From Sphingobacteriales bacterium (GTDB taxonomy: Bacteria > Bacteroidota > Bacteroidia > Chitinophagales > UBA2359): a stretch of DNA of 64,000 nucleotides. Position numbers: made by a program. Location of the stretch: NCBI GenBank assembly GCA_016706405.1, contig JADJJT010000002.1:569445-633444 (forward strand). The letters are read 5' to 3'. Below are positions 30,001 through 45,000 of this stretch, piece by piece (position 1 is the first letter of the stretch; each line of letters starts with the position of its first letter).

Positions 30001-33000
30001 TGCTTAAAAATGCAACCCATTTGCAGTCGGGCGAAAACCGGGCGGCTACATCAATAAAATCGCCTTTGGTGAGCGATTGGGTTTTACCAGTTTTAACCTC
30101 GATGAGTTGCAAATTACAATATTTTTTTTCGGTTTTTTTGTCAATACGGTTCAAAGCATATACTACTTTTTTCCCTGATGCCGAAAAATGGCAACCCGAT
30201 ATGGTTTGCAATTTGTATAAATCTTTTAGTTTCATTTTTGGTAGTTGGTTGTTTTTTTCTATCGCCTAAAATTAGGAATTAGTTATGATAAAAACAAATT
30301 TTGACTTCCGTGTAATTTTTAAAAACCCGCCCAAAATAAAAAATCCGGATAGAAAGCATTTTAAAGCCTCTATCCGGATGTTTAGTTTTAGTAAAAATGA
30401 AATTTATTTAAGCCATACCTTCCCAAAGTCAAAAGAACTGTTAATTGCAACTCAATATGTATTTAAAATTATCTTGCATTTTTTTAGTACTGCTTTATTG
30501 CCATTTCTAACCTCGATTTAACGGTATCGGCAAGCCTTAATGGTGCTATAACCGCAACCATATCGGCATACGAAAGTATTAACCTTTCTAACTCGTAGTT
30601 GATAATTACGTGCAGGCTTATTTTTAAGGTATTTTCGTCTATCCATTTCGATTTTTGCGAACCATGCAAGGGCTTGGTCTCCATGTATTTTCCTGTTCTG
30701 CCTTTAAAGTGCAACACTACTTGTTCGGGTTCGGCATTGTCGGGTTTGGTAACGCCGATTATGTCTTCAAAATACTCCTGCCAGTCTATTTTATTGTTTT
30801 TTTGATACGCCCCTTTTGTTTCCTCAACAGATACAATGCGGTCTATAGCCAAATTCCAGTCGTGTTTTTTCTTTTCCGGATTATAGCCAAATAAAAACCA
30901 GCGACTATTATATTGTTTTAAAAAATAGGGGTGTAGCCGAACCTCAAAAGGAATATCATTTTCAAAGGGCTGATAACTAATGGCAAGTACTTTTTTATAG
31001 AAAATGGCATTATACAATTGCCCAAGGTGCTCAATACCTTTTAGGTACTGGTTGCTGTCGAACTCCATAATAGTAGTGGGCATTTCATCAATAGCCATTC
31101 CTTGTTGCAGTTTAGGCACCAGCTCATTTACCCATTCAAATTGTGGCATACCCTTAAACTGCGAAAGTATGCCCACCGCAGCCTTTAACTGGTTAATTTC
31201 TACTTCGTTCAAAGGCATATTATTAATATAAAACGACATGTCGGCGTAGCGATAGTACACTTTTTTGCCAAACCTGTGCCTTGCCAAATCAATGCTCCAG
31301 CCTTCTTTACTTTCCATGAAGGCAATATCTTCAAATAGCTGCCTTCGGCTGATGCCGTTCGATTCCGGATCTATTTCAAGCAAGATATTTTCACATTCGG
31401 CAATCAAATCATCAATAAAATACCTTCTTCCCGGATTTCTGAAGCAGTTATCCAATACTTTGTAGCGTATAAGTGCATTTTTATTTGTAGCCATAGTGTT
31501 CTTGTTTTTTATGGTGCGGCGGGGGGGTAATTTTTGTAAATATGGGCAGAGAAGAACCCCAAGGGTTCAAACGTTTGTAGAACAGGTTGTAGGGGGGTTT
31601 TATACGACCCTGTCGGGGTCGAACCTTTTATTCTGTAGGGTTTTTCTATAAACATAAAACCCCTTCGGGGTTGGTTTGATTGGTTTTGTTTTAATTAAAT
31701 AGTGCAGCAGTTGGCGCAAAATTAATTTAAAATAATTACTTTTGTGCAGCTCTACTGCATAGTTAGATGATTACTTTGCACTCTGTTCTTTGAAAGCCTG
31801 CTACACGATATTGAATTGTGCCAACTGGAATGAATCGGTTGGTGTTCTCCGTTTCATCGGAGTATGAATGTTTTATCGGTAATTTGTTAGCTCTCGTCTG
31901 ACAGATTAAATGATACGATAATATATTAATTATTATTTCTATACATACACAAAGAATACAGCAGCAGGCTTCATTGAACCTATTTAAAAAAGTGAAACCA
32001 GCGCAAGAACATATAGACCGTATTAAAACTGCCTTTGAAAAAATGCAGTCGAAAGAAGATTTACTTCGTTTGTTAAACGAGGTAAAACCCCTTATTTATG
32101 GAAAAAAAACGGTTCCGTTTGCTTTGAAACAACTGACCTGGCACGCCAACCCTAAATTGGGTGGCAAAAGGTATGAAGCCTTTCACATCAAAAAAAAATC
32201 TGGGGCAGACCGAAGCATACACGCGCCGGTAAAAGGGTTAAAAGCATTGCAAAAAACGCTGGCGCTTATACTTCAGGCTGTTTTTGAACCGCATAATGCG
32301 GCAACGGGTTTTGTTTGGGAAAGGTCAATTGTGGACAATGCTAAACTGCATGTTGGCAGTAATTATGTGTATAATATAGACCTGAAAGATTTTTTTCAGA
32401 GTATAGACCAGGCAAGGGTATGGAAAACCCTGCAACTAAAACCCTTCAATTTGAATGAGACTGCTACGGAAAAACCTTTTTCTATGGGGTGGGGGGATTT
32501 TCAAAAAAATTATCTGAAAACAAAAAAGCCTGTAAAGTTTTATAAGGGCAAGGGAAGGGTATTCGTCAAAACACCTTTGGGTCGTCCCATTCATATGTCA
32601 AACAATTTTAACGCTGAAAAAGATGCTTATGTATTGCAGGCTGGCAGTTCATTAAGAACCCAAAAAGGTAAATCTTTAAAAAACACCCTTTGGTTGGTAA
32701 ATAAAATACCGGATACAAGCCGGTTGGGAATAGCCAATATTATCGCCTCGCTGTGCTGCACCGAAATGGAAGTGGAGCGAAAAAACGAAGCAGGCGAATG
32801 GGAAAAAGTTAAACGAAATGTATTGCCACAGGGCGCGCCTACTTCGCCAGTTATAACAAATATAGTATGCCAAAAACTCGATTACCTTCTTACAGGAGTA
32901 GCCAAACGTTTCAGGCTAAAATACAGCCGTTATGCCGACGATATTAGTTTTAGCTCTAAACACAATGTTTACAAACCGGGTAGCGAATTTATAATAGAAT

Positions 33001-42000: not shown

Positions 42001-45000
42001 CAAAGAAGAAAAAAAGGAGTGGGGCTGGAAATTAATATAAACCTAAACGCATTGAACCCAAAATAAAAAATCCGGATAGAAAGCATTTTAAAGCCTCTAT
42101 CCGGATGTTTTAGAATTAGTAAGGAATAAATAACATCAATATTTATTTCATCCTACTTATATTATAAATGTTCAAATTTATTTTTGTGCTGGAGGATATG
42201 ATATTGTTTTACTGTCATTAAGTTGGGGATTTAATGCAGTTTGGGCAATTTTTTGTTGGCTGTTTATTTTATCCGGATGCTGTTTTTGTTGTTGTAAATT
42301 GCCATGTCCCCCGCTACCGGCTGAGGTGTGCCCTCCTAAAATTGGTGCTATAATTAAGCCCACCAAACAAGTTAATTTAATTAAAATATTCATCGAAGGG
42401 CCGCTGGTATCTTTAAAGGGGTCGCCTACGGTATCGCCAATAACGGCGGCTTTATGAGGCTCGCTGCCTTTATAATAAACCTGGCCATCAATGGTAACGC
42501 CTTTCTCGAACGATTTTTTGGCATTATCCCAAGCGCCGCCGGCATTGCTTTGAAAAATTGCCCACATAACCCCCGAAACAGTTACGCCGGCCATATAGCC
42601 ACCCAACGCTTCGGCACCTAACACAAAACCTATTATAATGGGCGAAATAATGGTAATTAATCCGGGCAGCATCATTTCGCGTATGGCTGCTTGGGTTGAT
42701 ATTTCTACACAACGGCCATACTCGGGTTTGCCGGTGCCTTCCATAATCCCTTTAATTTCGCGGAACTGCCGGCGCACTTCGTTTACCATAGCCATTGCAG
42801 CTTTACCTACCGAGTTCATAGCCAAAGCCGAAAATACAACCGGAATCATGCCGCCTAAAAACAGGGCTGCCAAAACCGGTGCTTTAAAAATATTAATACC
42901 GTCAATACCCGTAAAGGTAACATAAGCGGCAAACAAACCAAGTGCTGTAAGTGCCGCCGATGCAATAGCAAAGCCTTTACCTATGGCGGCAGTGGTATTG
43001 CCCACCGAGTCTAAAATGTCGGTGCGCTCGCGCACTTCTTTGGGCAGGTGGCTCATTTCGGCAATACCGCCGGCGTTGTCGGCAATAGGGCCAAAAGCGT
43101 CAATAGCTAATTGCATGGCTGTGGTTGCCATCATGGCCGATGCCGATATTGCAACGCCATAAAATCCGGCCAACCAGTAGGTAATAATAATTGCTCCTGA
43201 AAATATAATAATTGGCAATGCTGTTGAAAGCATACCTTGCCCCAATCCGGCAATAATATTAGTTGCTGCGCCTGTTGCCGAACGTTGCACAATGGCATTT
43301 ACGGGGCCTTTTCCTAATCCGGTATAATGTTCGGTAATTAACGATATTAATGCGCCAACAACTAAACCTACCGCAACAGCGCCAAATACATTTAACGAGC
43401 TAATAGTGCGAGTTCCTTCACCAAAAAACGACAAAGTAATTTCTTTGGGCAGCATCCAAGCAATTAGGCCATAGCAGGCAATACCTGTTAAAATTATCGA
43501 AAACCAGTTGCCGCGGTTTAAAGCACCTTGAACTTTGTCGGAGTTTGCTGTGCCGTCGTCTTTAACATTTACAAACCAGGTTCCAATGATTGAAAAAATA
43601 ATGCCCAGTCCGGCAATGGCAATAGGCAATAAAATAGGCCCAATACCGCCAAAACTATCGGTTAGTTGTGGATTGTCGCGTATTACATAATTACCCAATA
43701 CCATAGTGGCTAAAACGGTAGCCACATACGAGCCAAACAAGTCGGCACCCATGCCGGCTACGTCGCCTACGTTATCGCCTACGTTGTCGGCAATGGTAGC
43801 GGGGTTGCGGGGGTCGTCTTCGGGAATGCCGGCTTCTACTTTACCTACCAAGTCGGCACCTACATCGGCAGCTTTGGTGTATATACCGCCTCCAACGCGG
43901 GCAAACAAGGCAATGCTTTCGGCACCTAAAGAAAAACCTGCCAATACTTCTAAAACAAGGGTCATTTTTTGGTAGCCGCCACCAGCCATGTTTCCGCCCA
44001 TAAAAAACGAGTAAAATAAGGCAAACAACAGGCTTAAGCCTAAAACAGCCAAACCCGCAACGCCTAAGCCCATAACAGCTCCGCCAGTAAACGAAACTTT
44101 TAAGGCCTGTGCCAAACTTGTACGGGCGGCTTGTGTAGTGCGCACATTGGCACGAGTAGCTATTTTCATTCCAATAAAACCAGCTATGGCCGAAAAGCAT
44201 GCACCAACAATAAAAGCCGCTATTATTAGCCAATGTGAGGTAGCCACTATTTGCGACATAATACCAAGCAATACACTGGCAATAAGCACAAAAATAGCTA
44301 ACACTCGATACTCGGCTTTTAAAAAGGCCATAGCGCCATCGGCTATATGTTTTGAAATAGTGCGCATTTGTTCTTCGCCGGCATCTTGTTTGCTCACCCA
44401 GTTAAACTGGACGTACATATATATAAGGCCTAAAACGCCAAAAATTGGTAGTAGGTACACTAAAAACTCCATAATTTAATTTTCTGCTTAATAGATTTTG
44501 CGGGTTATTGGTAAATAATAGATTTGCAATATGAGATAAAATGTTAATTTTAACAGATTGACCCGCAAAGATACGTGTAATAATAGAAATATTATGGTTT
44601 TTTTGAGGAGTTTTTTGCGAAGCAATATAGTTTATTCCTCCGGAATTTAGGGAATTATTCCGGAGTTTAAATTATCCGGATGCAATTTGCCTTATGATAT
44701 TGCTATTTTGCTTTTCCGGAGTTAAAGTCAAAAAAATCACAACAAAATTAGCTCATTTGAGGGGCGGGCGCTATATTTTGGTAGATGGTCAGTAAGGTTT
44801 TTGCTTCGTTTTGCCAATTATACACTTCGCGGGCAGCTAAACAATTTTGACGTAAACTTTGGTATAATTTTGGGTCGTTGAGCAGTTGGTTGGCCGCCTG
44901 TGCAATTTGCGCGGGCTGCAAATTAGGCAATAAAAGTGCAATTTGATACTTGGCGTTAATAGCGGCGTACTCGGTAAAATTGCTGCATAACTGTGGCACA

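Follow-up and report, generated by a model that had tools for sequence, protein, structure and literature searches.

A predicted TOTE/retron-like defence cassette bracketed by a duplicated putative hppA terminator in a Saprospiraceae bacterium

Long target duplications and the locus downstream of hppA

Many defence islands sit in chromosomes without a trace of their arrival route. A possible precedent is the phenomenon named insertion with long target duplication, described for restriction-modification genes, mostly in naturally competent species, in which units of <20 kb without mobility genes are flanked by target duplications of 46 to >400 bp that often overlap the 3' end of a neighbouring gene and whose mechanism is unexplained (Nobusato et al. 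2000; Furuta, Abe and Kobayashi 2010, PMC2853133). Flanking repeats are assigned in the same work to three classes, namely site-specific recombination, long target duplication, and chance insertion between repeats (PMC2853133). A locus that invites comparison with this phenomenon lies in the 64-kb stretch of a Saprospiraceae genome analysed here (assembly GCA_016706405.1, contig JADJJT010000002.1; hereafter the window), in which 11.66 kb of DNA (30396-42056) separates hppA, coding for a membrane pyrophosphatase, from an S9 peptidase gene and is bracketed by a direct repeat derived from the region downstream of hppA. Judged by its sequence, this insert is best explained as a single horizontally acquired defence cassette, predicted to be of TOTE/retron-like type, and on balance it was probably installed with a long target duplication through homology-anchored recombination with the DNA of a relative.

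The insert shares with the published units a length below 20 kb, a defence content and the lack of a mobility gene of its own, and its repeat, 54 bp when counted as perfect identity and ~66 bp at 95% identity, exceeds 30 bp, as do the published duplications, which vary in length and sequence; the published class is defined by comparison with the empty site, whereas the window is likened to it through features of the insert and the repeat only. The published cases concern restriction-modification genes, mainly in Proteobacteria, while here the phenomenon would be extended to a large TOTE/retron-like cassette in Saprospiraceae, thus to Bacteroidota, and to a nos cluster in another member of the Bacteroidia. 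Moreover, the published cases were not analysed for synonymous, allele-like differences between the repeat copies, and the new clue is that at the comparison loci described below the copies differ like alleles of a neighbouring gene; together with a conserved retron-like RNA, this is the most useful new lead. The preliminary description of the locus had left its mobilisation without explanation, a statement that needs revision in view of this precedent.

The window contains exactly two copies of the repeated 54-mer (CCCAAAATAAAAAATCCGGATAGAAAGCATTTTAAAGCCTCTATCCGGATGTTT), one at 30330-30383 and the other at 42057-42110, both on the plus strand and without a mismatch, as previously described; the chance expectation for such a match is 0, and no third copy is present in the 64 kb when up to three mismatches are allowed. 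The similarity extends further than had been reported, through an indel of one T, the dinucleotide AG, two mismatches and the heptanucleotide TTAGTAA, giving a full repeat of ~66 nt at 95% identity (BLAST; 30330-30394/5 versus 42057-42122). Outside these ~66 nt the flanks align no better than shuffled sequence on either side, and no decayed longer duplication was detected. On the minus strand each copy folds into a stem of 11-14 bp followed by UUUUUUAUUUU, with a free energy of -24.7 to -26.3 kcal/mol (z ~ -6; none of 200 shuffles folds equally well), and the repeat is thus predicted to contain a strong intrinsic terminator for hppA, in line with the preliminary description. Specifically, copy 2 lies 67 nt past the hppA stop codon and begins 16 nt beyond the stop codon of the gene for a protein with TPR and OB-fold domains (TPR-OB), while copy 1 lies 100 nt past the stop codon of a WYL regulator gene, with 94 nt separating it from the S9 peptidase gene downstream; the accessory DNA is accordingly bracketed as exactly as had been claimed. 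Both copies are expected to act as terminators that insulate hppA and the WYL and S9 genes from one another, as a by-product of the duplication. Both junctions were seen again in independent assemblies from NCBI, ENA, JGI and Logan, which excludes an assembly artefact; in Logan one contig is interrupted within the repeat, a break that assembly from short k-mers would be expected to produce at repeated sequence.

Conversion does not keep the two copies identical, since a T-to-G single-nucleotide polymorphism at 42077 is found in some strains in copy 2 only. This bears on a scenario of later copying, in which the cassette arrived without any duplication and the terminator was subsequently transferred by ectopic gene conversion, from hppA to the WYL side or in the reverse direction, and kept for insulation. 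Such copying would agree with the appearance of both copies as functional terminators in the correct place and orientation for hppA and WYL, and a recent event would be consistent with their perfect identity; however, conversion needs prior homology at the acceptor, the polymorphism speaks against homogenisation, and a separate event would be needed at each of the four loci of the same architecture presented below, so that this scenario is very unlikely.

The repeat is clearly host-type sequence, because the arms of its hairpin carry an octamer motif, ATCCGGAT, that is enriched in this species. The motif is present in both arms of both copies (30343, 30372, 42070, 42099), and it occurs 28 times in the window against 0.8 expected (~35-fold), with an extended consensus of TTTATCCGGATAAA and a higher frequency outside long open reading frames (ORFs); the hexanucleotide TCCGGA occurs 99 times against 8.4 expected. 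Among all the loci fetched, the enrichment is confined to this species. In character, ATCCGGAT recalls highly iterated palindromes or uptake-signal-like motifs, and terminator stems, including those of the 54-mer, are built from it.

A conserved cassette in other Bacteroidota

The listed gene content of the island (WYL regulator, reverse transcriptase (RT) operon, helicase, TPR-OB protein and a copy of an insertion sequence (IS)) proved correct in Pfam and PADLOC searches. The preliminary view of these genes as acquired and non-core also stands, yet they are not the mixed collection that had been supposed. For the TPR-OB protein and the helicase, the contigs of the nearest non-self relatives were examined, and six other contexts were found to hold the same genes in unchanged order and orientation, the flanking genes being unrelated in every one: a Bacteroidia metagenome-assembled genome (MAG; locus L109), a Ferruginibacter (L110), a sludge organism (L111-113), four Candidatus Vicinibacter MAGs (L114-119), and two further contigs (L120-121 and L122). 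The recurrence of the whole set in unrelated neighbourhoods indicates one conserved cassette rather than a collection of accessory genes. Identity to the proteins of the window amounts to 58-86% for WYL, 57-80% for the N-terminus of the RT, 58-70% for TPR-OB and ~77% for the helicase, the last falling to only 40% over the helicase core in L111 and L112.

Within this framework, the kinase/receiver middle of the cassette is a variable module. It differs at one locus between L114/L117/L118 and L119, all from Candidatus Vicinibacter, which have the flanks and the helicase and TPR-OB genes in common, and this points to module swapping inside the cassette. Likewise, L111 and L112 share 98.8% identity apart from the WYL gene and the beginning of the RT gene, where it drops to 78%, a divergence limited to the left end that indicates allele replacement there. 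The ends of the cassette are also variable, an extra gene of 150-154 aa being present or absent. Carriage by a phage or plasmid was considered and rejected, because neither the repeat nor the cassette was found in viral contigs, in which the helicase query matches only generic RecD-like phage helicases, and because the relatives of TPR-OB on plasmids (at most 37% identity) and in phage (27%) are merely distant.

TOTE (TPR, OB, TBP, Effector) denotes a computationally defined conflict system, according to the citation of Aravind, Iyer and Burroughs (2022) in PMC12458937. All four dedicated TOTE Pfam families score above threshold in the cassette: the TPR protein carries two S1/CSD OB-folds (PF22860, 166 bits; PF22708, 67.7; PF22707, 67.1; cut-offs 27-27.5), and the TBP-like domain PF22721 (105.9 bits, in two stretches) is fused to the SF1 helicase effector. 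The cassette therefore shares with TOTE systems (PADLOC candidate PDC-M16) the combination of a TPR/OB-fold protein with a TBP-helicase effector, and it appears to differ from them in the constant linkage of its TOTE pair with a WYL regulator and with a module of RT, histidine kinase (HisKin) and inactive receiver (iREC) that has a conserved non-coding RNA (ncRNA). We know of no experimental validation of TOTE conflict systems, and a search of the literature on HisKin/iREC returned nothing relevant. The finding that the TOTE pair, WYL and the RT-histidine kinase with its structured RNA travel together is useful for reconstituting a candidate defence system.

The RT module is a candidate retron-like unit, as suggested by a covarying RNA upstream of the RT gene and by the matches of the RT to retron models. 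Specifically, a long-range closing stem of a1/a2 type (31785-31804 with ~31961-31979) encloses three inner helices, and the 200-300 nt upstream of the RT are strongly conserved in nine of nine cassettes (window, L109, L110, L111, L112, L114, L119, L120 and L122). In their alignment, 90% of cells are paired, against 27-47% with slid partners, compensatory changes occur at ten pairs, and none of 500 shuffles attains the covariation score; for the 19-pair closing helix alone, the corresponding values over the nine cassettes are 90% paired and four pairs with compensatory changes. The copy in the window is without one GNRA hairpin that all other copies have. The ncRNA has no Rfam match, and no Rfam family at all was detected in the window. 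The best PADLOC models for the RT are those of retron RT types XI, XII and I-C (297-330 bits), and the cassette is like these retrons with RT-fused effectors in its RT domain scores and in the upstream ncRNA closed by an a1/a2-like stem; it differs in the fused domain, a histidine kinase, a fusion partner absent from all PADLOC retron types. An alternative RT start (TTG 31974, 850 aa) falls inside the a2 arm of the upstream RNA.

Flanking repeats at other loci and the route of insertion

Direct repeats surround some of the other cassettes as well. The cassette of L112 is bracketed by a 105-nt direct repeat of 93% identity (187-291 and 12033-12137), of which copy A is the 3' end of a neighbouring DUF4153 gene and copy B an orphan fragment that has kept the reading frame, with a TAA exactly at the end of the repeat. 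Six of the seven differences between the copies are synonymous and the remaining one is conservative, while random decay would give ~1/4 synonymous (p ~0.003); the copies are thus diverged alleles of the 3' end of a gene rather than a decayed in-place duplication. The Candidatus Vicinibacter cassette is bracketed by an 84-nt repeat of 92% identity, in L114 an element like a repetitive extragenic palindrome (REP) located after TerC. The frequency of such architectures was assessed in 62 hppA loci of other Bacteroidota (1.32 Mb), with direct repeats of >=50 nt and >=90% identity located 3-20 kb apart being counted; the left edge of L109 lay beyond reach. Repeat pairs were found in one of the 62 control loci and in three of the six cassette contexts (Fisher p ~0.0015).

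The sole positive control locus, L023 of a Bacteroidia MAG, carries a complete nos cluster of ~8.3 kb next to hppA (Rrf2 regulator, cytochrome c, NosZ, fasciclin, NosL, NosD, NosF and NosY). Its repeat of 167 nt and 94.6% identity (887-1053 and 9384-9550) comprises the stop codon of the upstream DUF4350-like gene with the 39 codons before it, and its terminator hairpin. The differences consist of three synonymous changes in the coding core and two amino-acid changes at the very edge, and the synonymous pattern of the core gives these copies, too, the look of diverged alleles rather than of a decayed in-place duplication. The repeats of different hosts are unrelated to one another: that of the window derives from the hppA terminator and that of L112 from the 3' end of DUF4153, while that of L114 is the REP-like element after TerC.

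The allele-like repeats of L112 and L023 favour homology-anchored recombination over cut-and-fill or integrase action. A process of this kind, homology-facilitated illegitimate recombination, was reportedly described in natural transformation by de Vries and Wackernagel and by Prudhomme et al., both in 2002. In that process, homology on one side anchors the foreign DNA and the far end is joined at a microhomology. Applied to the window, the incoming DNA would stem from a relative whose cassette was already situated downstream of hppA, and the hppA 3'/terminator region would serve as the homologous anchor for pairing. The far end would then be joined illegitimately inside the anchored region or, alternatively, a circularised fragment would enter by a single Campbell-type crossover; either join would leave one donor-derived and one resident copy of the anchor around the insert. 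The cassette would thereby have been inserted just downstream of the hppA terminator with duplication of ~66 bp of that 3' region and with no element-encoded recombinase. One-sided anchoring would explain both the pairing of a donor with a resident allele in the repeats and the absence of mobility genes. In the window, all three differences between the copies fall within the 12 nt closest to hppA, and this clustering, the TTAGTAA patch, which could represent the microhomology used in the join, and the host-type character of the repeat are compatible with the homology-anchored route without proving it. The data show the repeat with its terminator structure, the unity and recurrence of the cassette, its lack of mobility genes and the allele-like flanking repeats of other loci; which way the event went, what the donor was and how recombination proceeded are inferred. 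The events reported for homology-facilitated illegitimate recombination usually delete recipient DNA instead of duplicating it.

A broader proposal can be put forward only tentatively, and we regard it as somewhat doubtful: long flanking repeats might be the signature of a general, recombinase-free spread of cassettes, both of defence and of metabolism (e.g., nos), among related Bacteroidota, with the 3' end or terminator of a shared neighbouring gene as the anchor and a donor and a resident copy forming a repeat of 50-170 bp. If true, this would supply the missing mechanism for the 25-year-old phenomenon of insertion with long target duplication and would make islands able to pop out and in through their repeats.

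The hallmark of integrase-borne islands is a pair of direct repeats through which the target gene regains its 3' region, and allele-like duplicated 3' ends are known for prophages in protein-coding genes, such as e14 and phage 21 in icd. The repeat could on these grounds be read as the attL/attR pair of a classical site-specific integration, 54-66 bp in length, whose tyrosine or serine recombinase was lost or acted in trans, the more so as it is sharp-edged and bears a palindrome. In the preliminary description the insertion had been called site-specific or microhomology-mediated, with duplication of the attachment sequence; its reading as an insertion with duplication is retained, while a dedicated site-specific attachment site is not the best interpretation, considering that the targets and repeats are unrelated between hosts and that, in coding repeats, the differences are synonymous. 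In agreement with its further statement that no integrase or conjugation gene is present, neither an integrase, nor a transposase apart from that of the IS, nor a relaxase was found in the island by Pfam and PADLOC. Moreover, the scanned ORFs of >=200 aa and the annotated genes of sister contigs gave the same negative across the 64 kb, no recombinase was found inside the cassette in any of the seven cassette contexts, and the window contains no tRNA gene. The cassette resembles integrase-borne islands and prophages in its end repeats that rebuild a target 3' region and in copies able to differ like alleles; it departs from them in having no integrase, no fixed target across hosts and no conserved ends, so that the locus was not classified as an integrase-borne integrative island. 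Since, in addition, the nos cluster shows the same architecture, site-specific integration is an unlikely origin.

Other mobile element types were likewise rejected. An integron cassette does not match the locus, as no attC boxes (RYYYAAC / GTTRRRY) occur within 30 nt of either copy and no IntI-like gene was found. For a DNA transposon, a target duplication of <15 bp would be expected rather than a repeat of 54-66 bp, and the inner ends of the insert are not inverted repeats, their alignment being no better than that of shuffles (340 of 500 score at least as high).

The duplication might instead result from a staggered break, with overhangs of 50-170 nt filled in after a transposition-like event or target-primed reverse transcription, maybe by the RT of the cassette itself. 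The cassette does encode an RT and a helicase, and non-LTR retroelements make long and variable target duplications. However, the divergent transcription units make a single RNA copy implausible, the RT is retron-like with a small template RNA of its own, the nos cluster has the same architecture without an RT, and terminal inverted repeats are absent. Filled-in copies would, moreover, start identical and then decay randomly, while the observed differences are allele-like or clustered. Fill-in of this type is hence extremely improbable.

The remaining class of flanking repeats, chance insertion between two pre-existing terminator- or REP-like copies without any duplication, finds its clearest counterpart in Candidatus Vicinibacter, in which the 84-nt repeat is one member of a local family that also forms a tandem array of four copies at a distance of 4.5 kb (18968-19349), making that case ambiguous. 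In the window species, the iterated palindrome ATCCGGAT builds terminator stems, and fragments of the 54-mer of 13-15 nt recur at other hairpins of the window, as chance insertion would allow. Against it, the 54-mer has just two copies in 64 kb, which are 100% identical and located exactly at the edges of the cassette, its 37-nt hairpin core occurs only once in 241 million metagenome records, and in L112 and L023 the repeats consist of unique coding 3' ends and not of REP elements; the origin by chance is therefore improbable to a high degree.

The homology-anchored insertion was further confronted with the available genomes of the species and its relatives. No empty site was found, every contig with an identical hppA, S9 or TPR-OB protein carrying the island at this place. 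The sampled genomes of this Saprospiraceae species are near-clonal here (~99.97% identity), and even one strain that diverges by 1% in other regions shows no difference within the island. Outside the species, the next hppA is 78-80% identical and without synteny, the protein search falling from 100% to 80% with nothing in between; in a scan of relatives with hppA, one genome per species, hppA identity reached at most 78%, and S9 adjoined hppA in none of 80 other Bacteroidota genomes. The junction predicted for the empty site is TTTTTAAAAACCCG followed by the 54-mer and TAGAATTAGTAAGG, and that predicted for a circle or tandem is ACGCATTGAA followed by the 54-mer and AGTTTTAGTAAAAATG. The empty-site pattern had no match in the metagenome contigs, a collection barely containing this species: the hairpin core was found in one contig only among 241 million records, in the context of copy 1, and this scarcity makes the negative junction search weak, while the single match argues against a high-copy repeat family. 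The species is common in activated sludge, so the idea is testable in long-read metagenomes.

Several points weigh against the homology-anchored insertion. Neither an empty site nor a circle junction was found, so that insertion is not directly shown, and the near-clonal sample displays no presence/absence polymorphism. A run of 54 identical bases beside three differences in 12 nt is odd for simple allelic divergence. The G+C content of the island (0.33-0.39) is low yet inside the range of the other genes of the window, and composition was for this reason rejected as proof of foreign origin; the density of TCCGGA in the island is half that of the flanks, which is not decisive. Furthermore, no flanking repeat was detected at the cassettes of L110, L120 and L122, and the Candidatus Vicinibacter cassette may be a chance insertion between repeats. 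In L122, ExoX-like_C genes flank the cassette on both sides; they were rejected as a flanking repeat, being paralogues of 35% identity without a nucleotide repeat.

Layout of the island and other features of the window

The features of the island and its core flanks are collected in Table 1. Several of them are altered in the source genome.

Table 1. Coordinates of the island, its flanking repeat and the adjoining core genes in the window
Feature	Position	Strand	Description
S9 prolyl-oligopeptidase family gene	28244-30235	-	PF00326, 1.9e-50; core left flank
Repeat copy 1	30330-30395	-	54 nt perfect plus 12-nt imperfect extension; predicted terminator hairpin with U-run
WYL-WCX transcriptional regulator	30484-31494	-	Pfam/PADLOC; divergent from RT operon
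D12a element	31593-31676	+	84 nt, two GC hairpins; upstream of RT operon
Operator-like palindrome TGCAG-N5-CTGCA	31745-31759	+	between WYL and RT genes
Structured non-coding region, retron-like ncRNA candidate	31785-31979	+	directly upstream of RT gene
RT fused to 'HisKin-conflict' histidine kinase	31992-34526	+	retron-type RT; 844 aa from GTG 31992
227-aa gene	34530-36281	+	no family match; broken in window, intact in IS-free strains
Secondary IS	34869-35928	-	1060 bp; 9-bp target duplication CTAAAAATC at 34860-34868 and 35929-35937
iREC (inactive receiver) + receiver protein	36278-38077	+	PF22563, 66.8 bits; PF00072
D12b element	38180-38263		80% identical to D12a; upstream of helicase operon
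SF1 (RecD/PIF1-like) helicase fused to tandem TBP-TOTE domains	38362-40551	+	PADLOC PDC-M16A, 852 bits
TPR + DUF7017 + two S1/CSD-TOTE OB-fold domains	40541-42040	+	PADLOC PDC-M16B, 687 bits
Repeat copy 2	42057-42122	-	54 nt perfect plus imperfect extension; predicted intrinsic terminator
hppA, membrane H+/Na+ pyrophosphatase	42178-44472	-	PF03030, 880 bits; core right flank, predicted terminator duplicated

The 227-aa gene is disrupted twice in the window, by a corrupted stretch at 34705-34766 and by the IS. The stretch at 34705-34766, a G/C-rich nonsense sequence, and a 1-nt insertion at 38443 are missing from every other assembly compared and are probably assembly or polishing errors of the source genome that create false pseudogenes. 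The helicase has 729 aa in sister strains, and owing to the insertion at 38443 its intact ORF begins at 38464 in the window. No Pfam match was obtained for the 227-aa, 150-aa and 154-aa cassette proteins or for the ORFs of the IS. The IS is absent in several strains and hence secondary to the island, as the preliminary description had assumed and as its own target duplication also indicates. A related IS copy at 2407-3627 is ~95% identical to the island IS of sister assemblies and 78-100% identical in ungapped blocks within the window, and its transposase frame is split too.

The operator-like palindrome between the divergent WYL and RT genes is kept in other cassettes (L109, L110, L112 and L122), and a related half-site lies at ~38305-38325, upstream of the helicase operon. 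TGCAG-N5-CTGCA is probably the WYL operator, and its position by the RT operon, together with the related sequence by the helicase operon, suggests that WYL would control both operons. The D12a and D12b elements have one hairpin with a UUCG loop and were found in this species only.

Beyond hppA, a repeat family of ~300 nt with 4-6 copies of 64-94% identity occupies 46999-56300, its members lying between small paralogous genes with SnoaL and alpha/beta-hydrolase neighbours. Within the window, strong variation between strains is confined to 50-53 kb, where 137 of the 147 differences to L009 are found. Other defence-type genes of the window are a HigB/HTH toxin-antitoxin pair at ~47550-47850 and, lastly, a Type ISP/MmeI-like restriction-modification fusion of 1053 aa at 56313-59474.

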